A stretch of DNA of 64,000 nucleotides from Candidatus Woesearchaeota archaeon CG10_big_fil_rev_8_21_14_0_10_37_12. Its GTDB lineage: Archaea; Nanobdellota; Nanobdellia; Woesearchaeales; ARS49. The DNA is taken from assembly GCA_002762795.1 (NCBI GenBank), contig PCYA01000009.1, positions 5,059 to 69,058 on the forward strand, read 5' to 3'. Shown here piece by piece: positions 6,693-63,954 of this stretch (positions are counted from its first letter, which is position 1; every line of letters starts with the position of its first letter). The position numbers and the translations under genes were made by a program. The notes below the pieces were generated by a model that saw nothing but the letters and a program-made list of their open reading frames with translations, ran no database searches and was not told the DNA's origin.

Positions 6693-6714
6693 CCTTGCAA
6701 TTCAATAACAAATA

Positions 6715-7647
6715 TTACTTCTTTTCCTCAGAATTATCCATAACAAGCCTTGCAACATTATTCGTTGCAGTTATCATTGACTTAAACAACTCAGCAACAC
6801 CTGGAGAAAGCTCACTTGCAGAGGTAATCAAACCAACTCTGTCAAGAGCAACCTGCTCTGCAAGCTTTCTATCACTCACAAAATAAGCCTTCATTGCATC
6901 AAGATAACTCTTTTCAACACGCTCAAACATCTCCTTGATATTTGATTTTTTCTTTTCCTTACCAACATACTCTGCCAAATGTTTTGTATAATCAGCAAAA
7001 TTTTCCAGATTAATCGTTAAATAATAAAAATTGAGAATCTGATCATTAGACAGCTGAAATGAATCCGCAATATGCTTATTTGCCAAGGAACTTTTTAACA
7101 AACGCATAAGCAAAAAATACGCACGATTCACTTCCTCATCACGCATAATGACGCTGTCAATAAGCTTTGCATCATCCAATGCAGCAACACTATCCTGAAG
7201 CATACTACGCACAAGCATGTCCATCCTACGAACAGTTTTCTCAACATTCACATCCTTAACATTCAACAAATCCTTTGCAACAATACTCTTCGCAGACTGC
7301 TCAGCAACTTCCAGCGCAACAAAATCATGTAACATTTTCCGAATGTCTTTTGTTTTTGCAGCAATAGAAGAACCAGCAAGAACAATTGTATTGTAATTGT
7401 TAATGTACGCGCTCGTGATTTCTCTCTGTAAAGTGCTTAATTCTTTATTATCTACAGAAATTGTAATCTCTTTCTGAGGAAGAGGCTCATCGCCTTTATT
7501 TTCAGGAGTAATCAACAATTCATGATCTCCCCGCTCATGCAGATAAACCAAATCACCCTTTTTAAGACGATGTTTATCTAGCCATTCTTTTGGCAAAGAA
7601 ATGGTATGCGATGCCTGGCCAGCCTTAACTAACCGTCTAATAATCAT
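6715..7647 (-). CDS. phoU: Phosphate-uptake regulator PhoU homolog with an N-terminal SpoVT/AbrB DNA-binding domain
   Basis: The N-terminus MIIRRLVKAGQASHTISLPKEWLDKHRLKKGDLVYL is an AbrB swapped-hairpin, followed by about 230 aa of helical PhoU-like repeats. This is the typical archaeal architecture. Confidence 0.6.
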   Translation of the reverse strand: MIIRRLVKAGQASHTISLPKEWLDKHRLKKGDLVYLHERGDHELLITPENKGDEPLPQKEITISVDNKELSTLQREITSAYINNYNTIVLAGSSIAAKTKDIRKMLHDFVALEVAEQSAKSIVAKDLLNVKDVNVEKTVRRMDMLVRSMLQDSVAALDDAKLIDSVIMRDEEVNRAYFLLMRLLKSSLANKHIADSFQLSNDQILNFYYLTINLENFADYTKHLAEYVGKEKKKSNIKEMFERVEKSYLDAMKAYFVSDRKLAEQVALDRVGLITSASELSPGVAELFKSMITATNNVARLVMDNSEEKK

Positions 7648-11008: not shown

Positions 11009-11710
11009 ATGAAAGGAATAATATTAGCAGGAGGAACAGGATCAAGACTACAGCCATTAACTAAAGTCACAAACAAACATTTACTTCCAGTATATGACAA
11101 ACCCATGATTTATTATCCACTTAATACACTTGTCAAAGCAGGAATTAAAGACATTCTTATCGTATCTGGAAGAGGGCATGCAGGACACTTTTTAGAACTC
11201 TTAGGTTCTGGAAAAAATTTTGGAGTTAATATTAATTACGCAATACAAGAAGAAGCAGGCGGAATAGCACAAGCACTATCACTTGCAGAAGACTTTGCAG
11301 ACAATGATTCTGTTGCTGTCATCCTTGGTGATAATGTTTTTCAGAACGATTTCATATTTAGTGATTTTAAGGATGGCGCTCGAGTTTACATAAAAGAAGT
11401 ACCAGACCCACAACGCTTCGGCGTTGTCACACTTGATAGAGACAAAATTACAAAAATAACAGAAAAACCAAAACAGCCTGAGACTAATTGGGCAGTAACT
11501 GGTCTTTATATTTACGATGCAACAGTTTTCGATATTATCAAAACACTAAAACCATCACAAAGAGGAGAATTAGAAATAACAGACGTGAATAACGCATACA
11601 TTCAACGCAATGCCCTCGAAGCACGAAAAATCAAAGGATTCTGGTCAGACGCAGGAACATTCGAAAGCTTATACAGAGCAAGTGAGTTTGTGAGAAATAG
11701 CAAACAGTAA
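11009..11710 (+). CDS. Sugar-1-phosphate nucleotidyltransferase (short RmlA-like)
   Basis: N-terminal ILAGGTGSRLQPLT motif. Confidence 0.7.
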   Translation: MKGIILAGGTGSRLQPLTKVTNKHLLPVYDKPMIYYPLNTLVKAGIKDILIVSGRGHAGHFLELLGSGKNFGVNINYAIQEEAGGIAQALSLAEDFADNDSVAVILGDNVFQNDFIFSDFKDGARVYIKEVPDPQRFGVVTLDRDKITKITEKPKQPETNWAVTGLYIYDATVFDIIKTLKPSQRGELEITDVNNAYIQRNALEARKIKGFWSDAGTFESLYRASEFVRNSKQ

Positions 11711-11752: not shown

Positions 11753-13360
11753 TTGGTAAATAGTGTAGTGTTGAGAGTCACAACTTTTATAAATTCTCAT
11801 TTGACTAGATTAACTATGCTATACGTGGTTGGATCAGGACCTTCAGGAATATCATGCGCTCACGCATTACTAAGCAAAGGCGAACAAGTAACATTACTAG
11901 ATGCAGGCATTGAACTTGAAGAAGACAGAAAGAACATCTTAAAAAAAGTAGGCAAACCAGTCAATCTATCCTTATTCAACAAAATTAAAGGAAACATCAA
12001 TCCTGTTGCTAAAGACGTTTTAAAACTCGTTTACGGATCTGATTACCCGTACAAAGAAGTAAAACAGCACGTACCAATAAAAACAGTTGATACAACTTGC
12101 AGACCATCATTTGCAAAAGGAGGACTGAGCACTGTTTGGGGATCTTCTATCATGCCCTGCATTGATGAAGACATTTCAGACTGGCCCATCTCAATAAAAG
12201 ATTTAAAACAATATTATAACAAAGTCTTTTCTTTCATGCCTCTTGCATGCAACAAAGATGAACTAGCAGACAAGTTTCCCCTTTATGCAGACAAAACATA
12301 CGATTTTCACCAAAGCAGACAAGCAGATCTTCTTATGCAAAGATTCAAAAAACACAAATCAAAATTAAATAAAAAAGGAATACTATTCGGCAGCTCAAGA
12401 CTTGCAGTAAACTTCTCAAAATGCGACTACGGAGGCCTTTGCATGTATGGCTGTCCATACAAACTAATCTACTCTTCAGAATTCACACTCGAAGAACTTA
12501 AAAAAAATAAAAACTTCACATACCTTCCTGGAATAGTAGTTGAGAAAATTATAGAAAACAATGACAATGTACAAATTATATGTCACGAACTCCAATCAAA
12601 ACACCCAAAAAAATTCACTTGCGAAAGAATCTTTCTCGCATGCGGTTCTATACTATCAACAAAAATTATTCTCTCATCACTCGACAAATATGACTATCCT
12701 GTTACACTCAAAGACTCCCAACACATTCATGTTCCATGCATAATGATAAACGGAGCTTCAGAGGTTACAAAAGAAAAACTACACAGTCTCACACAATTAT
12801 ACCTTGAAATCTTTGACAAAAAAATAAGCCCTTACTCAATTCACGCACAAATCTACACATACAACGATCTATACAAAACATTCTTTAAAAAGAAACTCGG
12901 AAAACTATACAACATTCTTCAAAAACCACTAGAATTACTCATGGGCAGAATAATATACATAAAATTCTACCTTCACTCTTACAGCTCTTCAGAAATGAAA
13001 CTTCAACTTAAAAAAGGAAACCCAGATACAGTGACTATTTCTTCAGCAATTAACAAATCTACAAAACAAACCATCAAAAAAATGACCTTTAAATTTCTCA
13101 AAAACTTCAGACTACTTGGCTTCATTCCAATGACACCTATGCTAAAAATAAGCAAACCAGGAGGAGCAAACCACTACGGATGCAGCTTTCCAATGAGCGC
13201 AAACCCAAAAAATAATGAGTCAGACATCCTAGGCAGACCATACGGACTTAAACGAACACACATAGTTGATTCAAGCGTACTACCAAGTATACCAGCACAA
13301 TCCATTACATTAACAGTAATGGCAAATGCTTACAGAATAGGCGATACGTACAAAAAGTGA
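11753..13360 (+). CDS. GMC-family FAD-dependent oxidoreductase
   Basis: N-terminal GSGPSG FAD fold. The C-terminus GGANHYGCSFPM...VDSSVLP matches the GMC C-terminal catalytic region. The real start is probably the Met at 11816. Confidence 0.55.
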   Translation: MVNSVVLRVTTFINSHLTRLTMLYVVGSGPSGISCAHALLSKGEQVTLLDAGIELEEDRKNILKKVGKPVNLSLFNKIKGNINPVAKDVLKLVYGSDYPYKEVKQHVPIKTVDTTCRPSFAKGGLSTVWGSSIMPCIDEDISDWPISIKDLKQYYNKVFSFMPLACNKDELADKFPLYADKTYDFHQSRQADLLMQRFKKHKSKLNKKGILFGSSRLAVNFSKCDYGGLCMYGCPYKLIYSSEFTLEELKKNKNFTYLPGIVVEKIIENNDNVQIICHELQSKHPKKFTCERIFLACGSILSTKIILSSLDKYDYPVTLKDSQHIHVPCIMINGASEVTKEKLHSLTQLYLEIFDKKISPYSIHAQIYTYNDLYKTFFKKKLGKLYNILQKPLELLMGRIIYIKFYLHSYSSSEMKLQLKKGNPDTVTISSAINKSTKQTIKKMTFKFLKNFRLLGFIPMTPMLKISKPGGANHYGCSFPMSANPKNNESDILGRPYGLKRTHIVDSSVLPSIPAQSITLTVMANAYRIGDTYKK

Positions 13361-51893: not shown

Positions 51894-52547
51894 TTATCTA
51901 TTCCCAAAAAGAACAGGCAAAATTTTACTTTGCGCCTTTTTCAAATGTTCCTGAAATGTAACTCTTGAAATATTCATCTGTTTTGCAAGTTTTTCAAGAT
52001 CAGTTCTTTTAGGATAATCAAAGTAACCATCCTTAATAGCTAACTGCAACACTTCTTTTTGTCTATTTGTTAACTTTGGCATTACTTGAGGAACAAACAC
52101 ATCTGTAAAATCCGATTTTTCAATTGAAACAAGTTTTACAATAAAATGTTTTTTGAATATCTTATACAAGTCTGTTATGGTTTCTTTCTCCCAAGCGCCA
52201 AAAAGCCAGTCCTCTTTACCATCTTTATGAACTACAGGCTTTAACAGAAACACTTTTGGCGTATAATAGTTTGTTGTATGATGATCAGAATCTTTTAACT
52301 TAATATGTGAGATAAACACATTTCCCTCTCCAGAAAACTTCAGACAACGCTCATCTTTCTTAATTTCATTTACAAACGTACGAATATTATTTTCCTGCCC
52401 GATCAAAATATTTACATTTGTATGATATGTATAATTTCCTTCTCTGTAAGAACTCAAAGGATACATAGAAATAACAACATTATATTTGGATGCATTCTTT
52501 AAGTAAATACAGTTCTCATGCCAAACATTAAAGTGACCTATCCACAT
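51894..52547 (-). CDS. Transcriptional regulator with a C-terminal HTH_10 (bacterio-opsin-activator-type) domain
   Basis: TNRQKEVLQLAIKDGYFDYPKRTDLEKLAKQMNISRVTFQEHLKKAQSKI. Confidence 0.55.
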   Translation of the reverse strand: MWIGHFNVWHENCIYLKNASKYNVVISMYPLSSYREGNYTYHTNVNILIGQENNIRTFVNEIKKDERCLKFSGEGNVFISHIKLKDSDHHTTNYYTPKVFLLKPVVHKDGKEDWLFGAWEKETITDLYKIFKKHFIVKLVSIEKSDFTDVFVPQVMPKLTNRQKEVLQLAIKDGYFDYPKRTDLEKLAKQMNISRVTFQEHLKKAQSKILPVLFGNR

Positions 52548-52633
52548 AAATTCAAAAATGCTTTGTTTGTATATAAACTTAGACCAAAAAACGAATAGCT
52601 TAAAAAAGGATCAGAAAATAACAACATCATATC

Positions 52634-52707
52634 GGGGACATAGTATAACCTGGCTAGAATAGGCGGCTCCAACCCGCCGGATTTGGGTTCGAATCCCAAT
52701 GTCCCCA
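52634..52707 (+). tRNA. trnW: tRNA-Trp (anticodon CCA). The 3' CCA is not encoded
   Basis: 7-bp acceptor GGGGACA/TGTCCCC. Anticodon arm GGCGG-CTCCAAC-CCGCC. Canonical T-arm TTGGG-TTCGAAT-CCCAA. The D-arm is non-canonical as read. Confidence 0.75.
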
Positions 52708-52723
52708 CTTATTACTTTAAAAA

Positions 52724-53284
52724 ATGAAATCAATATTCATAATACACGGAACAGAAGGGTATCCAGAAGAGAACTGGTTTCCTTGGCTGAAAAAGAAATT
52801 AGAAGAATTAGGTTGCAATATTTTTGTTCCTCAGTTTCCTTCACCACCAATTGTTCCCGCAAAGATATCTGAATGGTTTGAAGTATTTGAGAAATACAAA
52901 CAGCACATTAATGAGGATACTATAATTATTGGTCACAGTTTAGGTGGAGTTTTTACCCTTAATCTGCTTGAAACATTAAAACAACCAATTAAAGCAGCTA
53001 TTTTTGTAGGCACTCCGATAGGCGTTCGTCCAATATTAAATTATGACAGAGACAGCAGTTTTAGTGGCTTTTCTTTTGATTGGCAGAAGATAAAAACTAA
53101 AGCACAGAATTTTATCGTTTTTCAATCAGATAATGATCCTTACGTCAGTTTGGGAAATGGCGAAGAATTAGCAAAAAACCTGAATGTAGAATTAAGCTTT
53201 GTACCAAACGCAGGACATTTCAATGAAAAAGCAAAGTATTTGAAATTTGAGTTGTTGCTTGAGAAGTTGAAGTTGATTTTGTGA
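52724..53284 (+). CDS. Alpha/beta serine hydrolase of the YdeN/RBBP9 family
   Basis: GHSLGG nucleophile elbow, 186 aa. Confidence 0.6.
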   Translation: MKSIFIIHGTEGYPEENWFPWLKKKLEELGCNIFVPQFPSPPIVPAKISEWFEVFEKYKQHINEDTIIIGHSLGGVFTLNLLETLKQPIKAAIFVGTPIGVRPILNYDRDSSFSGFSFDWQKIKTKAQNFIVFQSDNDPYVSLGNGEELAKNLNVELSFVPNAGHFNEKAKYLKFELLLEKLKLIL

Positions 53285-53351
53285 GTTTTATAGCAATATT
53301 TATAAGTATGTGCAATTATTTATGTTTAGTTTAGTTGTAGAGGGGGCGAGA

Positions 53352-53501
53352 ATGGAAGAAAGCAAAAACATCACATTGAAAGTCAATACAAAATTGTATG
53401 ACAAATATAGAGAACTCTGTAAACATGAAGGCTGGATTGTATCTCGTCAATTTGAGAAATGTATGGAAGAAGAATTAAAGAAGAGGGGCGAGAATGAGTA
53501 A
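53352..53501 (+). CDS. Small ribbon-helix-helix-like protein. Possible controller or regulator of the R-M operon
   Basis: NITLKVNTKLYDKYRELCK has a beta-strand-helix pattern. It overlaps the hsdM start. Its SD/start AGAGGGGGCGAGAATG is duplicated at hsdM. Confidence 0.35.
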   Translation: MEESKNITLKVNTKLYDKYRELCKHEGWIVSRQFEKCMEEELKKRGENE

Positions 53502-55515
53502 TTTTCAAGAAAAAATAACATTTATCTGGGATTGTGCTGATTTACTAAGAGGACCATATAAGAGAAATGAATATCAGAAAGTAATTCTTCCTTTTACTGT
53601 ACTAAAAAGATTTGATTGTGTTTTATCAGATTCTAAATCAAAAGTTCTTGAAACTTATAATCAGTTCAAAGGACAATTTGAAAACACGGAGCATGTTTTA
53701 CAAGAAGCGTCCAAAGATAAAAAGGGCAATCCTTTAGGATTTTACAATTATTCAAAATATGATTTTAAAACATTGCTTGAAGATCCTGAGCATATAGAAC
53801 AGAACTTAATTCATTATATTGATAGTTTTAGCAAAAATGTCCAAGATATTTTTGAGAAATTTAAACTTAAAGCACAAATAGAAAAACTTTCTAAAACAGA
53901 TAGACTGTTTAGGCTTGTAAAGAAATTTTCTGAATCAAAAGTTGATTTACATCCAGACGTTGTATCAAATCATGAGATGGGAACAATTTTCGAAGAATTA
54001 ACTCGTAAGTTTGCAGAACAGTCAAATGAAGAAGCAGGAGACCACTTCACCCCTAAGGATGTAGTTGAATTGATGACAAAATTGATGTTTATTGAGAATG
54101 GAGTTCATTTAACAAAGAAGAATTTGATTAAAACAGTTTATGATCCTGCTTGTGGAACTGGCGGAATGCTTTCTAGTTGTAAAGATTTTATAAGTAAAAT
54201 GAATGAATCGGTTGATATTGTTCTATTTGGTCAAGAAATTAATGATGAAATTTTCGCAATATGTAAATCTGATATGCTAATTAGAGGAGAAGATGCAAAT
54301 AATGTTAAAGGAGGAGATGATTTAAGCACACTTTCTAAAGATCAGTTTCCTAATGAAAAGTTTGATTATATAATCTCAAATCCACCTTATGGAACAAAGT
54401 GGGAAGCTGACCAAGACGAAGTAATAAAAGAATCTAAAAAAGGTTTTGAGGGTCGTTTTGGAGCAGGAACTCCAAGAATTAAGGATGGTCAATTATTGTT
54501 TTTGCAGCACATGATTTCTAAGATGAAATTAAAGGAGAAATCAAGAATTGCGGTTATTACAAATGGTTCTCCTTTGTTTACTGGTGATGCAGGTTCAGGA
54601 GAAAGCGATATTCGTAAATGGATTATTGAAGGAGATTTGATTGAAGCGATTATTGCCCTGCCTCATCAAATGTTTTATAAAACAGGTATAGGAACGTATA
54701 TCTGGATTTTGACTAATGAAAAGCCAATTGAAAGAGTTGGTAAAATACAGCTAATTGATGCAACTTCTAAATTTAAGAAGATGCGTAAAAGCTTAGGTAG
54801 TAAAAGGCAATATATTTCCCCTGAAGATATTAAAGAAATTCTGGAATATTATGAAAATTTCAAGCCTTCAAGAAATATTAAAATATTTGATAATGAAGAA
54901 TTTGGATATACTAAGATAACGGTTGAAAGACCATTACAATTAAACTATTGTGTTAATGAAGAAAGACTTGAAAATCTTTATTCTTATAGTGCTTTTTCAA
55001 AACTAGCTGAAAGCAAAAGCAAGAATCCTGATGAAAAGCTAAAAGAGGAAGAAGAAGGAAAAGCAGAGCAAGAGGAAATTATTAAAGCTTTGAAATCTGT
55101 CGGAGATAAAACTTATAAGAATTGGGATGAATTTGAAGAACTTGTTAAGAACGCTTTGAAAAACATTAAATTAACTCCCATATTTATCAAGAATATTATT
55201 CTTAAATTATCAGAACATGATGAAACTGCTGAATATGTTTTAGATGGAAAAGGCAAAAAACAAGCAGATTCCAATTTAAGAGATTCTGAAAAGATTCCAT
55301 TAAAAGAAGATATTCAAGAGTATTTTGACAGAGAAGTGAAACCATATTATCCTGATGGATGGATGGATAGAAGCAAGGATAAAATAGGTTATGAACTAAA
55401 CTTTACTCAATATTTCTACAAATATGTTCCTCCAAGACCTTTGGAAGAGATTGAAACAGACATCAAGAAAGTAACTGATGAGATTGCAGAACTAGTCAAG
55501 GAGGATGTCGAGTAA
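53494..55515 (+). CDS. hsdM: Type I restriction-modification N6-adenine DNA methyltransferase subunit
   Basis: IISNPPYG motif IV and DPACGTGGML motif I. Confidence 0.85.
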   Translation: MSNFQEKITFIWDCADLLRGPYKRNEYQKVILPFTVLKRFDCVLSDSKSKVLETYNQFKGQFENTEHVLQEASKDKKGNPLGFYNYSKYDFKTLLEDPEHIEQNLIHYIDSFSKNVQDIFEKFKLKAQIEKLSKTDRLFRLVKKFSESKVDLHPDVVSNHEMGTIFEELTRKFAEQSNEEAGDHFTPKDVVELMTKLMFIENGVHLTKKNLIKTVYDPACGTGGMLSSCKDFISKMNESVDIVLFGQEINDEIFAICKSDMLIRGEDANNVKGGDDLSTLSKDQFPNEKFDYIISNPPYGTKWEADQDEVIKESKKGFEGRFGAGTPRIKDGQLLFLQHMISKMKLKEKSRIAVITNGSPLFTGDAGSGESDIRKWIIEGDLIEAIIALPHQMFYKTGIGTYIWILTNEKPIERVGKIQLIDATSKFKKMRKSLGSKRQYISPEDIKEILEYYENFKPSRNIKIFDNEEFGYTKITVERPLQLNYCVNEERLENLYSYSAFSKLAESKSKNPDEKLKEEEEGKAEQEEIIKALKSVGDKTYKNWDEFEELVKNALKNIKLTPIFIKNIILKLSEHDETAEYVLDGKGKKQADSNLRDSEKIPLKEDIQEYFDREVKPYYPDGWMDRSKDKIGYELNFTQYFYKYVPPRPLEEIETDIKKVTDEIAELVKEDVE

Positions 55516-56440
55516 GATGGGGGATTTTCCAGAGAATCAAATAAAGTATATTTTAAAGGAGAAGTGGGATAATTCAAATAGAGTCGAATCTGCAATAACA
55601 GACTATTTTTACAAAGAGAAAAAAGGTTCAAAACCTACAAAAACTGATGATTTTATTCTATTATTTATACTTGGAATAAACAAAGATGGGAAGAAAGCAT
55701 TCTCTACAAAATATAGTACTTGGAAACAATCGAAAAATCAAAATTTGTCAAATGAGCTATTAAAACTCTTTTTCATTTCTTCCTTAAAAGATAAAAATGA
55801 CTTTAAGAAAAAAACAACAGAATTTCTAAAAGAAACAAAAATAAAAGATTTTGATAATAGTTTATCGCCACTCTATCTCTTTCTAGAAGAGTTATACTTG
55901 AATAAAAAAAATGAATTCGCAACAGGAATAAAAAACTCAATCTTGCCATTGATAGCTTCACTATTCGGATTTTATAGGCATAATAAAGTAAAACAATTTT
56001 ATCAGATGCAAATAGATCTTATTGATTTAGTAACCCAAAAAAGCATTAACACTTATGAAAAAATAGCCTTGTTGTTATATTCTGAGAACAAACAATTTCA
56101 AGGCATACAACTGAATAGAAAAGATTCTTTAGAATATCTTAAAAACAACAATCCTCCTGTTTTTTATGGATACATTAAGAAAAAATATCTAGACATATTA
56201 AAGGACTTCAAACTATGGGGTATTTCTGCAATTATTGGTTTATTTGCAATCTTGAGAACATTTGGGTTGCTTGACTTTACAGGTATCTACGAGGGAGAAT
56301 TTTTTAAGATAACAGGACTACCAATTATTGTTAATTGGATCTCAGAACCCATTAATCTATTAGTTCTTTTCTTGTTGTCAGTAATTGTTATTGGTGTAAT
56401 AAAGACAATGCAATTTTTTAAGGAGATGAAAAGACAATGA
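55505..56440 (+). CDS. Hypothetical protein X1. About 230 aa are soluble and the C-terminus has two TM helices. It is embedded between hsdM and hsdS
   Basis: It overlaps hsdM by 11 bp and X2 by 4 bp. No recognisable catalytic motif. Confidence 0.5.
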   Translation: MSSKMGDFPENQIKYILKEKWDNSNRVESAITDYFYKEKKGSKPTKTDDFILLFILGINKDGKKAFSTKYSTWKQSKNQNLSNELLKLFFISSLKDKNDFKKKTTEFLKETKIKDFDNSLSPLYLFLEELYLNKKNEFATGIKNSILPLIASLFGFYRHNKVKQFYQMQIDLIDLVTQKSINTYEKIALLLYSENKQFQGIQLNRKDSLEYLKNNNPPVFYGYIKKKYLDILKDFKLWGISAIIGLFAILRTFGLLDFTGIYEGEFFKITGLPIIVNWISEPINLLVLFLLSVIVIGVIKTMQFFKEMKRQ

Positions 56441-57915
56441 AGACAACAATATATTTTAGCGTCAATATTGATGTAGGGGAATATCCTTATGAAGCGTTGT
56501 ATAATGCTTTAGAGAGTCTAAAGTTAAGTATTAACAAAGAAAACAGAACCCTTTCCTTTAATGGCTTATTGATATCTTATCGCCTTAGACATAGGAAAGC
56601 AATACAACGTTATGTATTGACATTTAGTTTGGACAGACCTGCTTCTCAATTAACTGTGAGTGAAACAACACAAAGATATAATCAGATTTGTGGACTTATA
56701 GATTTCTTCCCTCCCGAGATTACAGTGGGGACACTTAAATTTACTCGTGAAGAAATAAAAGATGAAATAGATATTGGAGAATGGTCAATTACAAATCCTT
56801 ACAGTTCTCAAGAAGTAAGCATATTTGACAACTATAACCTTCAAAAACTTAAGGACGAATATGCTGGAAAAATACCCCTAAAACCCATATTTATACAACT
56901 CGATAATAGCGATAATGCTTCAGTCATAATTAATACACTGAAAACATTCTTTTCTGATAACCCTGAAGTGATAGAGGAACGAGTTAATCTTGTTAGAGAC
57001 ATAATTGATGGACGAGCAGACAAAAATAGAATATTTGTCATAATTATATACAGTGCAGATATAAATGATAGTTATATTAAACTGAAGAAATATTTCTTGC
57101 AAAATAACATTCCATCACAATTCATCAACATGGATGATAAGAAATTCTTTTTCAAAACAAAAAATCTCATACCTGAGATGCTGACTAAAGCATCTTGCTA
57201 TCCATTCAAATTTCCAGAGAACATCTCAACTGTAGACGGGTATATTTGCTTGAATGATGTTTATGATGAAAGAAACCCTCTTTTCGGAATAAACATTACC
57301 TATAACACAGAAGAAAATGTGTTTCACAATAAAATTAAAGTCTACTCAGATATAAAATATAATTCAGACTGGAAAAAAATAAACTTTGACGAGGGTAATG
57401 TTAACCTACTAGTGCAAAAAATAACATCCTTAAGTCCTGAATTAAAAGGGAAAACAATCAATGTTTATCTTACCAAATATTGGAAATATACAAACCTAAA
57501 AACACTACAAAAAAAACTTAAAGAGGCAGAAATTAAGATTAACAAAGTGTTTAACATATCATTCTTTTCAGATAAATTCGTGTTTCAAGGGATGGATTCT
57601 TTGGATAAAACAAAGATTCCATTTCTTATTAAAGACAAGTATGTTGCATACATACAACCAAACACTAGAATTGGACTATTTGGCAGTCTTTTCCCAATAA
57701 GTTTGGAGTTATCACTTAGGGATTCAGAAGAGGAAATAATAAGAGAAGATATTGAAGAATATTTGTGGCTGATTAAGAGAAGAGTTTATCGTTTACAGTA
57801 TATAGATATGTTAAGATACCCTGAGTTTTTGGCGTATTCTAAGAAAATAAAAGAACTTAAACTAAGCGAAGAAGAACTCTCTCAATTAACTTTTAGCGGG
57901 GATTTACTAATATGA
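56437..57915 (+). CDS. Hypothetical protein X2 (492 aa, soluble), embedded between hsdM and hsdS
   Basis: 4-bp ATGA overlaps on both sides. No P-loop or known nuclease motif identified by eye. Confidence 0.5.
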   Translation: MKTTIYFSVNIDVGEYPYEALYNALESLKLSINKENRTLSFNGLLISYRLRHRKAIQRYVLTFSLDRPASQLTVSETTQRYNQICGLIDFFPPEITVGTLKFTREEIKDEIDIGEWSITNPYSSQEVSIFDNYNLQKLKDEYAGKIPLKPIFIQLDNSDNASVIINTLKTFFSDNPEVIEERVNLVRDIIDGRADKNRIFVIIIYSADINDSYIKLKKYFLQNNIPSQFINMDDKKFFFKTKNLIPEMLTKASCYPFKFPENISTVDGYICLNDVYDERNPLFGINITYNTEENVFHNKIKVYSDIKYNSDWKKINFDEGNVNLLVQKITSLSPELKGKTINVYLTKYWKYTNLKTLQKKLKEAEIKINKVFNISFFSDKFVFQGMDSLDKTKIPFLIKDKYVAYIQPNTRIGLFGSLFPISLELSLRDSEEEIIREDIEEYLWLIKRRVYRLQYIDMLRYPEFLAYSKKIKELKLSEEELSQLTFSGDLLI

Positions 57916-59243
57916 AACTCAAACCATATCCAAAATACAAAGACTCTGGAGTTCAATGGATTGGAGAGATTCCTGAAGAGTGGGGAGTTAAAAAACTCAA
58001 GATAGTAGCTGATGTTAATATCAGTAATATAGATAAGAAATCATCGGATTTTGAGCCTTATGTTAAATTATGCAACTATACAGATGTTTATTATAATGAC
58101 TTCATAACTTCTGACATAATTTTTATGGTAGCAACAGCAAGTCACCAACAGATATCAAAGCTCAGACTTAAAGAAGGAGATGTACTGATTACCAAAGATT
58201 CAGAAGAAGCTGATGATATTGCCATTCCTGCATTAGTTAAGGAAACTTTCAAAGATGTTGTATGTGGATATCACTTAGCCCACATCAGACCTAATAAATT
58301 GGAATTACTAGGAAGTTACTTGTTCAGATTGTTTAAGTCAAAGAACGTTTCAGATTATTTTACCTTAAACGCTAATGGAGTTACCCGATTTGGTATTAGC
58401 ACATATCCAATAAAAAATGTCCAAATTCTCTTACCCTCCCTTCCAGAGCAGGAAAAGATGATCACTTTCCTAGATTCAAAAACATCTCAATTTGACCAAA
58501 CAATCGAAAAAGACAAACAATTAATTGAACTTCTAAAAGAAAAAAGAACTGCATTAATCAATCATGTTGTAACAAAAGGACTCGATAAAAATGCAAAGAT
58601 GAAAGATTCTGGAATTGATTGGATTGGAGAGATACCTGAAGGTTGGAGTACAAGAAGAATTGATAAGCTTTCAAAAGTAAGTAGAGGAGCATCTCCAAGA
58701 CCCATTGATGACCCAATATACTTTGATGAAAAGGGAGAATATTCTTGGGTTAGGATTGCAGATGTAAGTTCAAGCGATAGATATTTAGAGGAATCATCAG
58801 AAAAACTTTCAGTTTTAGGAAAATCGTTAAGCGTTGCTTTAGAATCCGGGAGATTATTTGTTTCAATAGCCGGAACAGTTGGAAAACCAATTATTACCAA
58901 AATAAAATGTTGTATTCATGACGGATTTGTTTATTTTAAAAATTTAAAAGTTAATAATGAGTATTTATATTATATTTTCATCGGAGAACAAGCATACCTA
59001 GGTTTAGGGAAATGGGGAACACAATTAAATCTTAATACTGAAACAATTGGATTAATTGCAATTCCTTTACCAGATGATAAAGAACAACACCAAATAGTCC
59101 AATACTTAGACAAAGAAACTTCAAAGATTGATCAAATTATTAAAAAGATTGAAGAAAAGATAAATTTAATGGAAGAATATAAAAAATCATTAATTCATCA
59201 TGTTGTAACAGGTAAAATCGATGTGCGAGGTGTTGCACTATGA
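57912..59243 (+). CDS. hsdS: Type I R-M specificity subunit with two target-recognition domains
   Basis: Duplicated DSGxxWIGEIPExW TRD starts and conserved central and C-terminal helices. Confidence 0.8.
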   Translation: MKLKPYPKYKDSGVQWIGEIPEEWGVKKLKIVADVNISNIDKKSSDFEPYVKLCNYTDVYYNDFITSDIIFMVATASHQQISKLRLKEGDVLITKDSEEADDIAIPALVKETFKDVVCGYHLAHIRPNKLELLGSYLFRLFKSKNVSDYFTLNANGVTRFGISTYPIKNVQILLPSLPEQEKMITFLDSKTSQFDQTIEKDKQLIELLKEKRTALINHVVTKGLDKNAKMKDSGIDWIGEIPEGWSTRRIDKLSKVSRGASPRPIDDPIYFDEKGEYSWVRIADVSSSDRYLEESSEKLSVLGKSLSVALESGRLFVSIAGTVGKPIITKIKCCIHDGFVYFKNLKVNNEYLYYIFIGEQAYLGLGKWGTQLNLNTETIGLIAIPLPDDKEQHQIVQYLDKETSKIDQIIKKIEEKINLMEEYKKSLIHHVVTGKIDVRGVAL

Positions 59244-60145
59244 ACAATACTTCAATCATTAGTGATGCAACAAGTACAATCGTGAATAATTCAGCACCAA
59301 TTCTGGCTTCTATTGACCCAAATTGGTTTTATAGTGCAATTGCTCAAAGTTCAGCAGCAATTGTTGGAATTATGGGCGCATTTCTAACTTCAAGAATAAT
59401 AAGTCAGAGAAGTGCAATATCCACTCTTCAAAATGAAATTCATGATAATAATAATAAAATGGAATTCTTGAAAAAAAGAATCTTTGAAAAAAAACAATGG
59501 GTTGAGCAAATAGATGAAGAAGAAAATATGACAAATGTCAAAGATTTCCTCAAAGAAATAAGAGATGATCTTGATCCAGATAATCCTCCTACCATAGATG
59601 AATTAATTGAAAAAGGTAATCAAGATGAAAATGAAGATTACCATAATCTTCCTAAAAATATACTTGAATTAAGTTTTAATGAAGAATATCTTACAGAGTT
59701 AAGAGAAAGACAAAGAAAGCGCTCATCTCCTTTTGGTATGCTTAATATGGATGGATTGATGCTTGATAGGTCAATACTTATAAATCCAAATATTACTGGT
59801 AAAAAATGGGACAGATATCGAAGATATAGTGATGAAATTTATGCAACAGAAGTTGAAATTGATTACTTATCTGATTTAAATAAAACAAAAAATGAGGAAC
59901 TCACTAAATTGATGGAAGCTAATGAAGTTAAAAAAACACTTTTGTTTCTTGGGGGATTTTCAATATTAGGAGTATTTGCTCCTCTAGGAATTATGATGAC
60001 TCAAAACAATTACACCATGAATTTATTTTTACCTTATACATTTTGGATTATTTTTGGTTCTTGGATATTAATACTATTTTATTTTACAAAAGAAATAATT
60101 CAACTAAATAATAAGATTCATAAGATGTCAAAAAATGGAAACTAA
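59240..60145 (+). CDS. Hypothetical membrane protein X3. It has an N-terminal TM, a coiled-coil or acidic middle region and two C-terminal TM helices. It lies between hsdS and hsdR, the position PrrC occupies in prr loci
   Basis: Overlaps on both sides. The E/K-rich middle is predicted coiled coil. Confidence 0.5.
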   Translation: MNNTSIISDATSTIVNNSAPILASIDPNWFYSAIAQSSAAIVGIMGAFLTSRIISQRSAISTLQNEIHDNNNKMEFLKKRIFEKKQWVEQIDEEENMTNVKDFLKEIRDDLDPDNPPTIDELIEKGNQDENEDYHNLPKNILELSFNEEYLTELRERQRKRSSPFGMLNMDGLMLDRSILINPNITGKKWDRYRRYSDEIYATEVEIDYLSDLNKTKNEELTKLMEANEVKKTLLFLGGFSILGVFAPLGIMMTQNNYTMNLFLPYTFWIIFGSWILILFYFTKEIIQLNNKIHKMSKNGN

Positions 60146-63068
60146 CACTTCAGAAAAAGCATTTCAAAATGATATTATTGCTCATTTAGTTAGTACAGGA
60201 TATAAAAGCAGAGGAACAAACTGCTTCAATAAAGCATCATGCCTTGATCCAGAATTGACTTTAAAGTTTATCATGGACACCCAAGAGAAAATTTGGAAAA
60301 AATTTCAAAAAGTTTATGGAGATGAAGCAGAAAATAAATTATTTTACAGATTAATCAATGAAATAGATAAAAAGGGAACAATCAATGTTCTAAGAAATGG
60401 CTTTAAAGATGTTGGATGTCAATTCAATATATTTTATCCTAAACCAAATAACAACAAAAATCCTGATTTATTCGAGCATTTTGAGAAAAACATATTTTCA
60501 GTTATTGATGAATTAGAATATCAAGACAGAGAAAAAGGAAATAGATTGGATTTGGTTATATTCATAAACGGACTGCCCATTTTAACAATAGAACTTAAAG
60601 ATACATTTTCTCAAGGTGTAGAGAGAGCAATAAAGCAGTATAAAGAAGATAGAGACTCTAAAGAAAAAATATTTCAAAATTGCTTTGTTCATTTTGCTAT
60701 GAGTGATGAAAAGATATTCATGGCAACAAAATTGGCTGGATGGAAAACAAGATTCTTGCCTTTCAACAAAGCATTAGATAATCCTGAAGTACAAAACGAT
60801 TACAAAACTTCATACCTATATAATGATATTTTACAAATAAACAAACTATCAAAATTAATTAATAATTTTGTTTATATTGAAAAAGAAGATACTGAGGAAT
60901 ATCCAATTTTCCCAAGATACCATCAATTAGATTGTGTTAATTTGCTTTTGGCAGATGCAAACCCTAGTAAAAATTATCTCATTGAGCATAGTGCAGGTTC
61001 TGGAAAAACCAAAACAATTGCATGGCTTTCTCATGGATTGATTAATAAATTTAACAGGTTAGATAATCGTATCTATGATATGGTTATTGTAGTTTCGGAT
61101 AGAAAGGTAATAGATAAACAATTACAAAATCAAGTTCAGGCAATTGAAAAAGTAAAAGGTATTGTTGATGTTATTGATGAAAAGAAATCTTCAAAAGATC
61201 TTAAAGAAGCAATGAAATCAGGAAGTAATATTGTTGTAACAACATTACATAAATTCCCTTATATCTTAGATGAAGTTAAGGATTTACCAAAACGAAATTA
61301 TGCAGTAATCATTGATGAAGCACATTCTTCACAATCTGGAGCAATGGCTCGAAAAATGAAACAAATTCTCTCAACAAACAGTTTAGAAGAAGCTGAAGCA
61401 CTAGAAAAAGATGTTGATGAAGAAGTTGAAGAAGAAATACTAAATGAAATTGAATCTTATAGGAATCTAAAAAATGTTAGTTTTTTTGCATTTACTGCAA
61501 CTCCTAAAAATAAAACTCTTGAAATGTTTGGGACTAAAGATGATGAAGGAGAATATCATTCATTCCATTTATATTCTATGAAACAGGCAATTGATGAAGG
61601 TTTTATTTTAGATATTCTCAAGCATTATCTTTCTTATGCAACTTATTTTAAGTTAGTCAAGAAAATAACAGATGATCCTGAATATGATGAAAAGAAAGCA
61701 AAAAAATTATTGAGAAATTTTGTTGAAAAGCATCCTCATGCAATTTCAAGAAAAACTGACATAATGCTTGAGCATTTTATGAGTTCAAGTTATAATAAAA
61801 TCAAAGGTAAAGCTAGAGCGATGGTTGTAACAAGGTCAAGACTTCATGCAGTATTATACAAAAAAGCATTTGATAAATTAATCAAAGAAAACAATTATCC
61901 AATAAAGACTTTGGTTGCATTTACTGGAATAGTAAAACATGATGAGCAGGAGTATACTGAAAGTAATATGAATGATTTACCTTCAAAAAAATCAATTGAA
62001 AATGCTTTCAAAGAAGAACCTTATAGAATTTTAATTGTTGCTAATAAATATCAAACTGGTTTTGATCAACCATTACTTCATACTATGTATGTTGATAAAA
62101 TGCTTAATGGGATTACTGCTGTTCAGACTCTTAGTAGGACAAATAGGATATATCCTCCTCACAAAAATGATACTCTGATATTGGATTTTGCAAATCAAAC
62201 AGAAGTAATTGAGAAAGCCTTTCAACCCTATTATGAAGCTACTTTCTTAAAAGAAGGAACTGATCCTCACAAATTATACGAGCTTGAAGAAAAATTAATT
62301 GATTATCAAATATTTGACCAAACAGATGTAGACGCTTTCATTAAAGCATGGAAAAAAGGAGAACCACAACCTAAACTTCACAATCTTTTGAACCCTGTTG
62401 TAAATGAGTTTAGAAAGAAGACTAAAAAAGACCAAGTCGGATTTAAGAAAACATTGAAGCGATATCAAAGTATATATTCATTTTTATCCCAATTAATGCC
62501 GTTCTCTGATGTAAATCTTGAAAAGATATTCCTATTTAATAAGTTTCTATCAAAGAAACTTCCAACAATAAATAATCCCTTACCCTTCAATGTTTTAGAA
62601 GATGTAGATATGGATTCATATAAAATCGTAAATAAAGGGGAAAAAGAGATAAAATTAAAATCGGAAGGCGAATTAAAACCTATTTCGGCAGGAGTTGGTG
62701 AATTTGCGCCAGATATAAACACTAAATTATCTAAAATTCTCCAAGCTTTAAATGATGCTTTTGGGACTGATTTTACTGAAGATGATAAAGTTTTCTTAGG
62801 AAGAGTTAAAGACCATCTTCTTGAAAATAAAGAATTATTAAACAAGATGGAACATAATTCTAAAGAAAATGTTAAAGCCGTTTTCGATAAATATTTCAAT
62901 CAAGAAATGACAGGATTATTAAATAGCAATATGAAATTCTATAAAAGATTAGTTGATAATGAAAAACTTAAATCAAAACTGAAATCTGCATTGTTTGATT
63001 TAATGTACTATGAGTTCAATAAACTTAAGAAGAATAAAGAATCAGAAAAACAAGAAAAAATAATATAA
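60135..63068 (+). CDS. hsdR: Type I restriction enzyme R subunit (SF2 helicase-nuclease)
   Basis: IIDEAHSSQ (DEAH box), FTATPKN motif, 977 aa. Confidence 0.8.
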   Translation: METNTSEKAFQNDIIAHLVSTGYKSRGTNCFNKASCLDPELTLKFIMDTQEKIWKKFQKVYGDEAENKLFYRLINEIDKKGTINVLRNGFKDVGCQFNIFYPKPNNNKNPDLFEHFEKNIFSVIDELEYQDREKGNRLDLVIFINGLPILTIELKDTFSQGVERAIKQYKEDRDSKEKIFQNCFVHFAMSDEKIFMATKLAGWKTRFLPFNKALDNPEVQNDYKTSYLYNDILQINKLSKLINNFVYIEKEDTEEYPIFPRYHQLDCVNLLLADANPSKNYLIEHSAGSGKTKTIAWLSHGLINKFNRLDNRIYDMVIVVSDRKVIDKQLQNQVQAIEKVKGIVDVIDEKKSSKDLKEAMKSGSNIVVTTLHKFPYILDEVKDLPKRNYAVIIDEAHSSQSGAMARKMKQILSTNSLEEAEALEKDVDEEVEEEILNEIESYRNLKNVSFFAFTATPKNKTLEMFGTKDDEGEYHSFHLYSMKQAIDEGFILDILKHYLSYATYFKLVKKITDDPEYDEKKAKKLLRNFVEKHPHAISRKTDIMLEHFMSSSYNKIKGKARAMVVTRSRLHAVLYKKAFDKLIKENNYPIKTLVAFTGIVKHDEQEYTESNMNDLPSKKSIENAFKEEPYRILIVANKYQTGFDQPLLHTMYVDKMLNGITAVQTLSRTNRIYPPHKNDTLILDFANQTEVIEKAFQPYYEATFLKEGTDPHKLYELEEKLIDYQIFDQTDVDAFIKAWKKGEPQPKLHNLLNPVVNEFRKKTKKDQVGFKKTLKRYQSIYSFLSQLMPFSDVNLEKIFLFNKFLSKKLPTINNPLPFNVLEDVDMDSYKIVNKGEKEIKLKSEGELKPISAGVGEFAPDINTKLSKILQALNDAFGTDFTEDDKVFLGRVKDHLLENKELLNKMEHNSKENVKAVFDKYFNQEMTGLLNSNMKFYKRLVDNEKLKSKLKSALFDLMYYEFNKLKKNKESEKQEKII

Positions 63069-63071
63069 ACT

Positions 63072-63245
63072 ATTCTCGCCCCTCAATTAAATACTTTCTC
63101 GAAGAGAAAGACTATCTTAAAAGCCCCCTCGTTATTAAATTTCTTTTTCCGCAGAAAAAGGCACTCTGTCTGTAGGACTCGGAATTCCCCCCTCGTCGTT
63201 TCGTTTTTAGTTTAGTTTTTAGAAAATTGCCCCCTTTCGTTAGCT
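63072..63245. repeat. C-rich short repeats (CCCCCTCGTT-like, 3 or more copies) plus ATTCTCGCCCCTC. The latter is an inverted copy of the GAGGGGCGAGAAT motif found at 53339 and 53482
   Basis: 63072-63084, 63128-63140, 63193-63208, 63228-63242. Confidence 0.5.
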
Positions 63246-63409
63246 CCTGAAATTATTGAATAGAATGCAAATTAGAGCAAATAACCAATTTACTCATTAC
63301 TAAATACAGAGAAACTGAAACAAAACATAGCTGATACGTGCCAATTTTTTTATAAACAATTCTTTTTCGGAGCGATAGTTTTAAATATTATCTGATATTA
63401 TTTGGTATT

Positions 63410-63661
63410 ATGTCTATGCAGATTAATTTGAGGATTTCGGAAGGGTTTCTAGAGCAAGCTAAGGAGTATGCTAAGAATAATGGGTTTTTGAATGTTCAAG
63501 AATTTATTCGTGATGCTGCTAGAGAGAAGATTTTTGGTTCTATGGAAGTGAGACCAGAATATTTAGAACGGTTGAATAGTATTGAAGCAAATACTTTTTT
63601 GTCTGATGGTGAATCTGAAGAGTTTGAAAGAGAACTTAAAAAAAGAGCACAGTTGGAATGA
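63410..63661 (+). CDS. Ribbon-helix-helix (CopG/Arc-like) antitoxin
   Basis: N-terminal beta-strand INLRISEGFLEQAKEYA. It overlaps the downstream toxin by 4 bp. Confidence 0.55.
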   Translation: MSMQINLRISEGFLEQAKEYAKNNGFLNVQEFIRDAAREKIFGSMEVRPEYLERLNSIEANTFLSDGESEEFERELKKRAQLE

Positions 63662-63954
63662 GAAGGAGAAAGCACAGTCATCTTTTTAGAAAACAACTCA
63701 AAAAAATTAAAGGGCAAGAGTTACAAAACACATTAAATAAAATAGATGAAATTTTAAATTCCACTGATTTGAATCATTATAAGAACTTAACACGCGATCT
63801 TAAAAAGTATAAAAGAGTTCACGTAAATAATTCTTATGTGATATTATTTTTTGGAGATGATGACACAGTTTATTTTGTTGATTATGCTCATCATGATATC
63901 ATATACAAACATAGCAAGAGAGATCTTAAAAAGTATGATGATCTAAAATTCTGA
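63658..63954 (+). CDS. RelE/ParE-family type II toxin
   Basis: C-terminal YVILFFGDDDTVYFVDYAHHDIIYK resembles the RelE/ParE Y-R-I-x-Y...V-x-I-L-R-I-G-H-R core. Confidence 0.5.
   Translation: MRRRKHSHLFRKQLKKIKGQELQNTLNKIDEILNSTDLNHYKNLTRDLKKYKRVHVNNSYVILFFGDDDTVYFVDYAHHDIIYKHSKRDLKKYDDLKF

Follow-up and report, generated by a model that had tools for sequence, protein, structure and literature searches.

A modular type I restriction operon carrying an Argonaute-like gene and an inverted copy of the hsdM start region in a Woesearchaeota archaeon

Type I restriction operons can carry foreign genes between their own, as in the prr locus, where the gene of the anticodon nuclease PrrC lies between hsdS and hsdR. 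Restriction-modification (R-M) units flanked by repeats have been documented as “putative mobile forms” (Furuta, Abe & Kobayashi 2010, PMC2853133), and transposon-like R-M units possess inverted repeats of 26–65 bp, at times around part of a system (PMC2853133). Short prokaryotic Argonautes (pAgos) that act with membrane effectors are represented by SiAgo-Aga1-Aga2 of Sulfolobus islandicus (PMC11788926, bioRxiv 10.1101/2021.12.09.471704), whereas an association of pAgo operons with HsdS has earlier been noted statistically only (PMC6299218).

According to gene calls and profile matches, the 64-kb window (the whole stretch of DNA analyzed here, from a Woesearchaeota archaeon) contains a modular type I restriction operon with accessory genes at ∼53288–63084. 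Its main genes are the following.

53494–55515, + strand: hsdM, 673 amino acids (Pfam N6_Mtase, 1.5e-63; HsdM_N, 1.8e-23)
55505–56440, + strand: all-helical protein with two C-terminal transmembrane (TM) helices (307–311 amino acids), from the translation
56437–57915, + strand: short Argonaute-like MID-PIWI protein, 492 amino acids
57912–59243, + strand: hsdS, 443 amino acids, two target-recognition domains (Pfam Methylase_S, 1.3e-28, two stretches)
59240–60145, + strand: putative membrane protein between hsdS and hsdR, 301 amino acids, three predicted TM helices, from the translation
60135–63068, + strand: hsdR, 977 amino acids (Pfam HSDR_N, SWI2_SNF2, ResIII, and T1R_D3-like)

All three components that define a type I R-M system are present, namely HsdM, an HsdS with two target-recognition domains (with an internal repeat in the gene at 57917/58580), and an HsdR that joins an N-terminal nuclease domain to an SF2 motor. 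The 301-residue membrane protein shows a weak PADLOC match to “2TM effector” (0.013).

Comparison with related operons supports the view that this R-M operon is built from modules and passes horizontally between genomes. The relative L090 shares 91% nucleotide identity with the window across hsdM, from 53500 directly after the start codon to the end of the gene, as well as hsdR and the conserved segments of hsdS. It differs in the upstream DNA and possesses neither the 311/492 pair (the two-TM and Argonaute-like genes) nor the 301-residue gene. In other relatives of hsdM, the slots are occupied by Schlafen/AlbA_2-HATPase (L092), GmrSD (L097, L099, and L181), or AAA_13 (L105), and in L119 by a Gabija-like combination of an OLD-TOPRIM ATPase and UvrD. 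In these tiny archaea, type I R-M operons serve as scaffolds, with two internal slots that are swapped among defense modules.

The best overall explanation for the locus, to which we give roughly even chances, is a horizontally exchanged, modular defense operon in which a 13-mer discussed below is both a start region and an exchange scar. A cassette-borne promoter would drive a small RHH-like regulator, followed by hsdM, hsdS, and hsdR, and the operon would offer two accessory slots, one between hsdM and hsdS and one between hsdS and hsdR. The former would house the short Argonaute-like MID-PIWI protein and its two-TM helical partner, the latter the further membrane protein. The RHH-like/YafQ-RelE-like toxin–antitoxin pair that follows the operon would be an independent unit. 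Against this explanation, the GC content of the operon (0.27–0.32) is merely slightly below that of the remaining window (about 0.33–0.37).

The rare Argonaute-like gene and its membrane partner, nested within the operon, are a more unusual feature than the 13-mer. The 492-residue protein shows the MID-PIWI fold without N and PAZ lobes, as is characteristic of short pAgos. Residues Y213, K217, Q228 (in PSQF), and K240 are invariant in eight homologs and form a candidate MID pocket of the Y-K-Q-K type for the 5′ end of the guide, assigned by pattern. A search of Pfam, including Piwi at the gathering threshold, gave no match for this protein, a sequence search against the PDB gave none either, and only one of ten members taken from the wider family has a sub-threshold Piwi match. 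The family comprises 10 close homologs and 72 cluster representatives among 1.8 billion representatives; the protein is divergent enough for Pfam to miss and rare enough to fill only ∼70 clusters. In seven of seven retrieved contexts the gene is embedded in a set of type I R-M genes or adjacent to one.

The two-TM protein consistently accompanies the Argonaute-like gene, as judged by co-occurrence in the retrieved loci. It has only nine homologs and an AF2 model with a pLDDT of 76, and searches yielded no Pfam, PADLOC, or NCBIfam match and no specific fold match. A co-encoded APAZ/Aga1-like effector was not detected. The Argonaute module may signal to this membrane partner. A more far-reaching reading, which we regard as possible but doubtful, sees the pair as an uncharacterized, very rare short-Ago clade with a dedicated two-TM partner that in DPANN archaea would travel exclusively within type I R-M operons, always next to hsdS or hsdM. 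The module would be coupled to restriction, for example by taking restriction-generated fragments as guides and triggering the membrane effector, and would reside in cassettes bracketed by copies of their own leader in inverted orientation, serving cassette exchange or 5′–3′ control of the mRNA. Should a mechanistic link between restriction and Argonaute immunity exist here, layered innate immunity in DPANN archaea could be studied at this locus as a testable example.

The region upstream of hsdM is organized as follows, and one of its elements recurs in inverted orientation behind hsdR.

53292–53323, + strand: putative cassette promoter region (from sequence, upstream comparisons, and alignment)
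53325–53336, + strand: TTTAGTTTAGTT, left copy of a 12-nt direct repeat of marginal significance
53340–53354, + strand: motif copy 1, GAGGGGGCGAGAATG, Shine-Dalgarno (SD)-like sequence and start codon of the RHH-like gene
53352–53501, + strand: putative RHH/CopG-like regulator, 49 amino acids (sub-threshold HMM matches)
53483–53496, + strand: motif copy 2, GAGGGGCGAGAATG, native SD and start codon of hsdM (from the sequence and a leader context shared with L093)
63072–63084, − strand: motif copy 3, inverted 13-mer (ATTCTCGCCCCTC on the + strand), starting 3 nt past the hsdR stop codon TAA (63066–63068)

The putative promoter consists of a TATA-like ATATTTATAA (53296–53305) and a conserved ATGTGCAATTATTTAT (53308–53323), and is conserved in L097, L108, L182, L093, and L124. 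Because it is homologous in related cassettes, we place the left edge of the cassette at ∼53288, directly past the stop codon of a preceding hydrolase gene. Since the promoter lies outside the left motif copies, the motif is not the left delimiter of the element. The direct repeat TTTAGTTTAGTT occurs in exactly two exact copies in the window (53325–53336 and 63206–63217), is reached by 19 of 1500 shuffles, and is part of a small tandem repeat.

The RHH-like ORF overlaps the start of hsdM by 8 nt. Its 49-residue product has weak profile matches (Pfam RepB-RCR_reg, E 0.0099; NCBIfam RepA/LexA-regulated) and no match in a sequence search against the PDB. An intact homolog of 57 residues (50% identity, 3e-10) overlaps an hsdM of a different family in L176, and truncated RHH ORFs behind a homologous TATA region are found in L097, L108, and L182. 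In an alignment of L093 and L124, the promoter of the window is followed by a single motif copy and the identical hsdM start, with no RHH gene. Relatives with one copy and no RHH gene thus exist, and the two direct copies around the regulator gene would mark where the RHH gene comes or goes. The duplicated initiation region proposed in the earlier note is therefore real according to the upstream comparisons and the alignment, and marks a junction around the small regulator gene. The accompanying suggestion, that hsdM was placed behind a small regulator already present, is improbable in this form because the arrangement of RHH gene and hsdM travels with cassettes elsewhere (intact in L176, truncated in L097, L108, and L182).

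The RHH-like protein may act as a controller of the operon. RHH regulators bind short repeated sequences, and the GAGGGG(G)C-containing sequences might accordingly be operator sites at both ends of the operon, bound by this protein or another regulator for autoregulation or looping. The motif copies cluster at the start of the regulator gene, at its end, and downstream of the operon, and the regulator overlaps hsdM in the manner of the controller proteins of R-M systems. However, cassettes that keep the RHH gene conserve the promoter-proximal ATGTGCAATTATTTAT rather than the G-rich motif, the RHH homolog of L176 is not accompanied by such a motif, the more distant cassette L179 has repeats but no RHH gene called, and the RHH assignment itself is sub-threshold. 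We regard operator sites as very improbable.

The 13-mer GAGGGGCGAGAAT has two exact copies in the 64-kb window, at 53483–53495 (+) and 63072–63084 (−). The first contains the ribosome-binding site and start of hsdM, agrees with the L093 leader context agagggagcgggaaaATGAGTAATTTTCAAG, and doubles as coding sequence for the C terminus of the RHH-like protein (..KRGENE*). An exact 13-mer had been claimed for the hsdM start (given as 53482) and, in reverse complement, for the region after the hsdR stop, and both hold. The copy claimed for the RHH start at 53339 is there but inexact: motif copy 1 reads GAGGGGGCGAGAAT (53340–53353), with one G more than the 13-mer, and ends in the AT of the RHH start codon ATG (53352). 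With one gap, the inverted match extends to 16 of 17 nt (GAGGGGCGAGAAT-AGT versus GAGGGGCGAGAATGAGT). No further copies were found in the window, in the 10 kb further to the right, or in ∼2.4 Mb of fetched loci, and SD sequences appear to be absent from most genes of the host. For these two reasons the 13-mer is not a generic SD context, the possibility that would have emptied the earlier observation of its meaning.

The inverted 13-mer is non-random. When 53285–53520 was compared with 63060–63410, an equally informative inverted match appeared in 0 of 1500 composition-aware shuffles. By length alone, inverted matches of at least 13 nt were reached in 19 of 3000 shuffles, which would suit a coincidental recurrence of an SD-like G-run in a short AT-rich spacer, devoid of history or function; the marginal value of TTTAGTTTAGTT within its tandem repeat points in the same direction, and so does the occurrence of G5/C5 runs, which are nothing unusual at comparable loci. 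Such a coincidence is nevertheless extremely unlikely, given the information content of the match, the position of the inverted copy within 3 nt of the final stop codon of the operon, and three more GAGGGGGC-like cores inside 170 nt, where ∼0.02 would be expected.

In the favored explanation of modular exchange, the inverted copy and the GAGGGGGC-like cores would be a short recombination junction or a scar from cassette exchange, such as is known from the flanks of R-M units, and the repeats would have arisen by recombination. The inverted copy abuts the hsdR stop codon, which is the 3′ limit of homology to related cassettes. On the other side, the inverted copy of 13–17 nt has no demonstrated generating mechanism. 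Such a bracket is absent from 13 hsdM relatives and from L181, which has an identical architecture including the Argonaute pair; it is therefore not family-wide and could be a lineage-specific accident.

The region downstream of hsdR contains the following features.

63094–63160, + strand: two perfect 7-bp hairpins, at 63094–63110 and 63143–63160
63187–63239, + strand: C-rich motifs CCCCCCTCG (63187–63195) and GCCCCCTTTCG (63229–63239)
63410–63954, + strand: RHH-like antitoxin (63410–63661) and YafQ/RelE-family toxin (63658–63954), from Pfam/NCBIfam

The hairpins, the first of which (63094–63110) is listed as terminator-like on the minus strand, flank a further C-rich motif, GCCCCCTCG (63123–63131), and the right copy of TTTAGTTTAGTT (63206–63217) lies between CCCCCCTCG and GCCCCCTTTCG. 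Three C-rich repeats past hsdR, as first described, are thus indeed present at 63123, 63187, and 63229. With up to one mismatch, GAGGGGGC has nine matches in the window, four of them at the edges of the operon, and a tandem-repeat search gave no clean unit for the C-rich motifs. The organization of C-rich motifs and interleaved hairpins seems to exceed that of a scar and is left unexplained by cassette exchange.

A rival explanation is control at the level of RNA, by an anti-SD motif as described for the 3′-UTR of Staphylococcus aureus icaR. The inverted 13-mer and three CCCCCUC(G) motifs, situated in the 3′-UTR of a 9.7-kb mRNA or in an sRNA derived from its 3′ end, might base-pair, as anti-SD sequences, with the G-rich regions where translation of the RHH-like gene and hsdM begins, and so tune methylase and regulator output after hsdR has been transcribed, or protect the ends of the mRNA. 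Complementarity between the region past the hsdR stop codon and the hsdM SD is 13 of 13, both left copies fall within leader or coding sequence that would be transcribed from the conserved promoter, each with an SD and a start codon, and the right copy lies 3 nt past the last stop codon. The spacer (63069–63409) contains no ORF of at least 20 amino acids and no Rfam family (the tRNA is the sole Rfam match), and the centroid fold leaves the C-rich motifs largely unpaired. The predicted duplexes reach −32.7 and −28.5 kcal/mol, compared with −24.5 ± 2.9 and −20.2 ± 3.0 kcal/mol for the shuffled UTR, but this is only ∼2.8 S.D. past the shuffles, some of which reach the same energies. For structured RNA in 63066–63270, z-scores were +0.5 and +0.9, i.e. 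stability was no greater than that of shuffles. Moreover, 14 related operons show no such complementarity, and most genes of the host genome appear to do without an SD. We therefore consider RNA-level control unlikely.

A replication origin was also considered for the region (an ORB-like dyad with a G-string, prompted by a change in the sign of the GC skew at ∼53 kb) and dropped because no Orc1/Cdc6 gene lies nearby and the skew tracks the coding strand. Of the RHH-RelE/ParE addiction pair proposed downstream, the pair itself is present, with antitoxin and toxin genes sharing 4 nt and with a TATA-like box and palindromic repeats directly upstream (TRF 63385–63411). The family assignments stay below thresholds: the toxin matches TIGR00053 (E 4.9e-10) and RelE_StbE (0.0013), both under the curated cut-offs, and the antitoxin has only weak, sub-threshold CopG/DUF6364 matches.

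Two genes precede the operon.

52634–52708, + strand: tRNA-Trp (CCA) (ARAGORN; Rfam tRNA, 52.9 bits)
52724–53284, + strand: serine hydrolase (Pfam PF06821)

The tRNA-Trp had been placed ∼600 bp upstream; it ends 644 nt before the RHH start, with a complete hydrolase gene in between, so that it adjoins the hydrolase gene rather than the R-M operon. The hydrolase is 62–79% identical among CPR bacteria and DPANN archaea, and in unrelated genomes its gene repeatedly lies next to a tRNA gene. It was tried as a synteny marker and proved useless for the locus because it is common to CPR and DPANN without conserved neighbors. On the right flank, the closest homologs found for TrmB are 67% identical, with only an adjacent small gene conserved and no shared synteny. 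All contigs that bear the exact flanking genes carry the operon or break within it; these are ∼100% identical to the window, with breaks at 53604/53654, 61683–61729, and 63177/63207. Among contigs bearing flanking or island genes, neither an empty site nor another occupant of the locus was found, which weighs against the explanation we favor. Insertion at this particular locus is therefore inferred, not observed.

No integrase or transposase was found among those window ORFs of matching size that were checked, nor among the genes called in the 10 kb past the end of the window, the region in which the earlier note had proposed to look for an integrase. Neither the window nor the next 10 kb to the right contains further tRNA-Trp pieces of 16–24 nt (1–2 mismatches). 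Outside the 13-mers, no target-site duplication is present, as the flanks TTAAAGAA and AATTAAAT, and likewise AGTTGTA and AATTAAA, differ. Of the proposal that the island is a mobile cassette integrated near a tRNA, the exchange and modularity of the R-M operon are upheld by L090, whereas integration at or near the tRNA finds no support, given that these searches gave neither an integrase nor a tRNA repeat, that the tRNA-adjacent hydrolase lies in between, and that the promoter is outside the left copies. We do not take the 13-mer for a terminus of an integrative element that targets tRNA genes, and a false lead is thereby removed.

A second, distant cassette with the Argonaute pair (L179/L180) speaks for the explanation we favor. 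It, too, is flanked by inverted repeats, which start at the last stop codon and consist of at least four collinear blocks of 14–16 nt (0 of 800 shuffles), and in L179 a tyrosine recombinase (Phage_integrase) gene lies directly outside the right repeat. The nested, collinear order of the repeats in L179 is what a long-range RNA helix would need, but the upstream blocks precede the likeliest TATA box and therefore may not be transcribed. The core CGAGGGGGC, common to the window and L179, is not enriched at other R-M loci, so its sharing may be chance.

The inverted repeats could instead belong to a mobile or invertible DNA unit, as terminal repeats or recombinase sites of a transposon-like R-M cassette that a recombinase encoded elsewhere moves or flips. 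In the window, the coding block from hsdM to hsdR is precisely enclosed by the inverted repeats; those of L179/L180 bracket the whole operon, next to the Phage_integrase gene; other samples yielded contigs with breaks at 53604/53654 and starts at 63177/63207; and there is precedent in the documented transposon-like R-M units with their 26–65-bp repeats (PMC2853133). However, the contigs break at positions other than the repeats, terminal repeats of no more than 13 nt would be very short, the exact left repeat leaves out the RHH gene and the cassette promoter, and neither the target-site and recombinase searches nor the distribution of CGAGGGGGC near other R-M loci favors such a unit. We judge it decidedly unlikely. 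Under modular exchange, the explanation we prefer, the repeat bracket is a modest result: it suggests how the gain or loss of small genes in a restriction operon can turn a region of translation initiation into a junction.

Compared with known systems, the locus resembles tRNA-targeting integrative islands in that a defense island lies within 650 nt of a tRNA gene. It differs from them by having no integrase and no duplicated 3′ segment of the tRNA, and by the intact, unrelated gene that separates tRNA and island. With repeat-flanked R-M units (PMC2853133) it shares repeats at the edges of the unit, some reported cases also bracketing part of a system only, and L179 with its long imperfect inverted repeats comes close to them. 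The window repeat, in contrast, measures 13–17 nt, is accompanied by no target duplication or empty-site comparison, and copies a translation start from inside the operon, not termini specific to an element. As in controller (C) protein R-M systems, a small DNA-binding-like ORF precedes and overlaps the first enzyme gene under a common promoter; the differences are a predicted fold that is RHH-like instead of HTH, a system of type I with no C-box identified, and an RHH-like gene that is truncated or absent in several relatives. In contrast to SiAgo-Aga1-Aga2, no APAZ/Aga1-like partner was detected for the Argonaute-like protein of the window, the fold of its actual partner is not recognizable, and its family is very small and falls below the Pfam Piwi threshold. 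Finally, the operon is similar to type I operons with embedded defense genes such as prr in harboring unrelated defense genes between hsdM, hsdS, and hsdR. What sets it apart from these is that the slot between hsdM and hsdS is taken by a gene for an Argonaute-like MID-PIWI protein together with that of its membrane partner, that an RHH-like ORF leads the operon, and that the host is a DPANN archaeon.

Exact protein matches assign the window to a Candidatus Woesearchaeota MAG from Crystal Geyser (locus tags COV18_022xx, on a contig of 784 kb). The type I restriction-modification (R-M) operon is embedded in the following gene layout, and all of its genes overlap by 4–11 nt.

Gene layout of the region
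52634–52708, tRNA-Trp
52724–53284, serine hydrolase (PF06821)
53352–53501, RHH-like ORF, 49 aa (RHH gene)
53494–55515, hsdM
55505–56440, ORF of 311 aa
56437–57915, ORF of 492 aa
57912–59243, hsdS
59240–60145, ORF of 301 aa
60135–63068, hsdR
spacer of 341 nt, between hsdR and the following pair
63410–63954, RHH-like/YafQ-RelE-like pair

GC skew is mostly negative from 1 to 53 kb and positive from 53 kb, with a cumulative minimum at ∼53 kb. The sign change probably follows the coding strand, and no Orc1/Cdc6 gene was seen near the minimum (∼52000–54000).

The operon is clearly exchanged horizontally, in modules. A related contig (L090) shares 91% DNA identity with the window from 53500 through hsdM, the conserved hsdS segments, and hsdR, and is different in the upstream DNA, the recognition domains of hsdS, and each of the three accessory genes. 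Across the hsdM family, Schlafen/AlbA_2-HATPase, GmrSD, AAA_13, or a Gabija-like OLD-TOPRIM ATPase with UvrD helicase occupy the two slots, hsdM|hsdS and hsdS|hsdR (variants in L092, L097, L099, L105, L119, and L181). The operon is a scaffold for swapped defense modules. The 301-aa protein of the hsdS|hsdR slot has three predicted TM helices and a weak PADLOC “2TM effector” hit as its sole match; its gene is absent from L090, the 91%-identical relative. Four other samples yielded contigs of sequence identical to the window that break off at 53604/53654, 61683–61729, and 63177/63207; k-mers common to related community cassettes may be behind the breaks within hsdM and hsdR.

The most novel element of the operon is the Argonaute-like module nested between hsdM and hsdS (55505–57915), which pairs a short Argonaute-like MID-PIWI protein of 492 aa with a helical partner of 307–311 aa. 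Residues Tyr-213, Lys-217, Gln-228, and Lys-240 of the 492-aa protein are invariant and resemble, by pattern only, a MID 5′-end pocket. Close homologs number only 10 among 5.8 billion proteins; a profile search of the family returned 72 cluster representatives among 1.84 billion, which pAgo models match weakly. The partner, encoded upstream, consists entirely of helices, the two at the C terminus being TM helices, and shows no recognizable fold. Each of the seven independent contexts retrieved places the pair within a set of type I R-M genes or immediately behind it, adjacent to hsdS or hsdM. An association of pAgo operons with HsdS was reported as a statistical observation in 2018 (PMC6299218), and a Sulfolobus short pAgo works through a membrane effector (PMC11788926; bioRxiv 10.1101/2021.12.09.471704). 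In two cassettes, the hsdM ahead of the pair is split into two ORFs (5905–6804 and 7140–9078 in L182; 2781–3984 in L183), and a DDE transposase lies directly upstream in L182, which suggests that these cassettes are decaying.

The earlier note had proposed a mobile cassette integrated near tRNA-Trp. In a loose sense, a mobile cassette is plausible, whereas tRNA-targeted integration is not supported: no integrase was found in the window ORFs checked or in the 10 kb beyond the window end, no repeated tRNA-Trp fragment was found, no target duplication is present, and it is the hydrolase, not the R-M operon, that adjoins the tRNA. Of 60 other CPR/DPANN loci, 7 (L014, L016, L019, L020, L021, L060, and L065) likewise have the hydrolase gene starting 15–170 nt downstream of a tRNA gene on the same strand, far above chance expectation; which tRNA it is differs among the loci. 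Between CPR bacteria and DPANN archaea, the hydrolase shows 62–79% identity. Nothing was found that links the island to the tRNA, and the collections yielded no close relative in which to compare occupancy of this locus.

The 13-mer at the hsdM start consists of a Shine-Dalgarno-like sequence, a spacer, and AT(G), and the same bases encode the RHH C terminus. Exact copies occur at 53483 (+) and, as the earlier note described, inverted just past hsdR at 63072 (−). The duplicated initiation region around the RHH gene is also borne out, as direct copies bracket this gene; the copy at its start (53340–53353), however, is not exact and carries one extra G. The inverted copy extends to 16/17 nt with one gap. 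With matches weighted by base composition, an inverted match of equal information content between the two operon ends arose in none of 1500 shuffles; judged on length alone, 19 of 3000 produced one. The 13-mer is absent from the 10 kb right of the window and from ∼2.4 Mb of other loci. Cores resembling GAGGGGGC lie at 53340 (+) and, as the three C-rich repeats noted after hsdR, at 63123, 63187, and 63229 (minus strand); the remaining five window matches (≤1 mismatch) are scattered. A 12-nt exact direct repeat, TTTAGTTTAGTT, also brackets the operon (53325–53336 and 63206–63217), with only these two exact copies within the window and marginal significance (19/1500 shuffles). Its right copy is inside a small tandem repeat, and a foreign contig (L004) begins at 63207.

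Two relatives (L093 and L124; HsdM identity 75–77%) have a homologous TATA promoter followed by a short leader with a single related motif copy (agagggagcgggaaaATG in L093), the same hsdM start as the window (ATGAGTAATTTTCAAG), and no RHH ORF. Three others (L097, L108, and L182) retain the promoter with its ATGTGCAATTATTTAT (in L182 an exact match to window 53308–53323) and a truncated RHH ORF of 21–26 aa (..SKNITLKV..), whereas L176 has an intact 57-aa RHH homolog overlapping an hsdM of a different family. By this distribution, the RHH gene is a long-standing, decaying companion of these cassettes. The L093/L124-type leader resembles what would be the product, or substrate, of recombination between two direct motif copies. 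The promoter belongs to the cassette, whose left edge is therefore placed at ∼53288, a few bases past the stop codon of the hydrolase, rather than at the motif.

At the right edge, homology to related cassettes stops at the hsdR stop, which puts the inverted 13-mer precisely on the 3′ junction. In 13 relatives and in L181, the DNA downstream is unrelated and lacks any inverted copy of the respective leader. The spacer behind the inverted copy contains no ORF ≥20 aa and no Rfam match, and its fold is not unusually stable; two perfect 7-bp hairpins (63094–63110, CTTTCTC-GAA-GAGAAAG; 63143–63160, CTTTTTC-CGCA-GAAAAAG) alternate with the C-rich motifs. On the minus strand, the order in both cases is hairpin, AT-rich TATA-like segment, GAGGGG(G)C. 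RNA 5′–3′ pairing between the operon ends is an unlikely explanation of the repeats, and their use as operator sites is improbable. The island as a whole is a type I R-M defense operon exchanged horizontally and in modules. We consider it about an even chance that its hsdM initiation region was reused as a junction; the direct copies on either side of the RHH gene and the inverted copy at the 3′ edge would then be the junctions.

A distant cassette (L179/L180), organized as hsdR-x-hsdM-x-hsdS followed by a 308/492-aa Argonaute pair at 38% identity, is also bracketed. Its long, degenerate inverted repeats (2321–2457 and 11474–11675 in both) start at the last stop codon and contain collinear blocks of 16 nt (88%), 14 nt (100%), 15 nt (100%), and 16 nt (88%). 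The CGAGGGGGC core common to the window and L179 is not enriched elsewhere. A tyrosine recombinase gene (11770–12552) lies immediately outside the L179 repeats; that the window repeats are recombinase sites seems rather doubtful, slightly less probable than RNA pairing. The L179/L180 bracket is compatible with a DNA-level and an RNA-level role alike, and both are in play. R-M units with flanking inverted repeats are a published pattern, which the L179/L180 repeats fit (PMC2853133).
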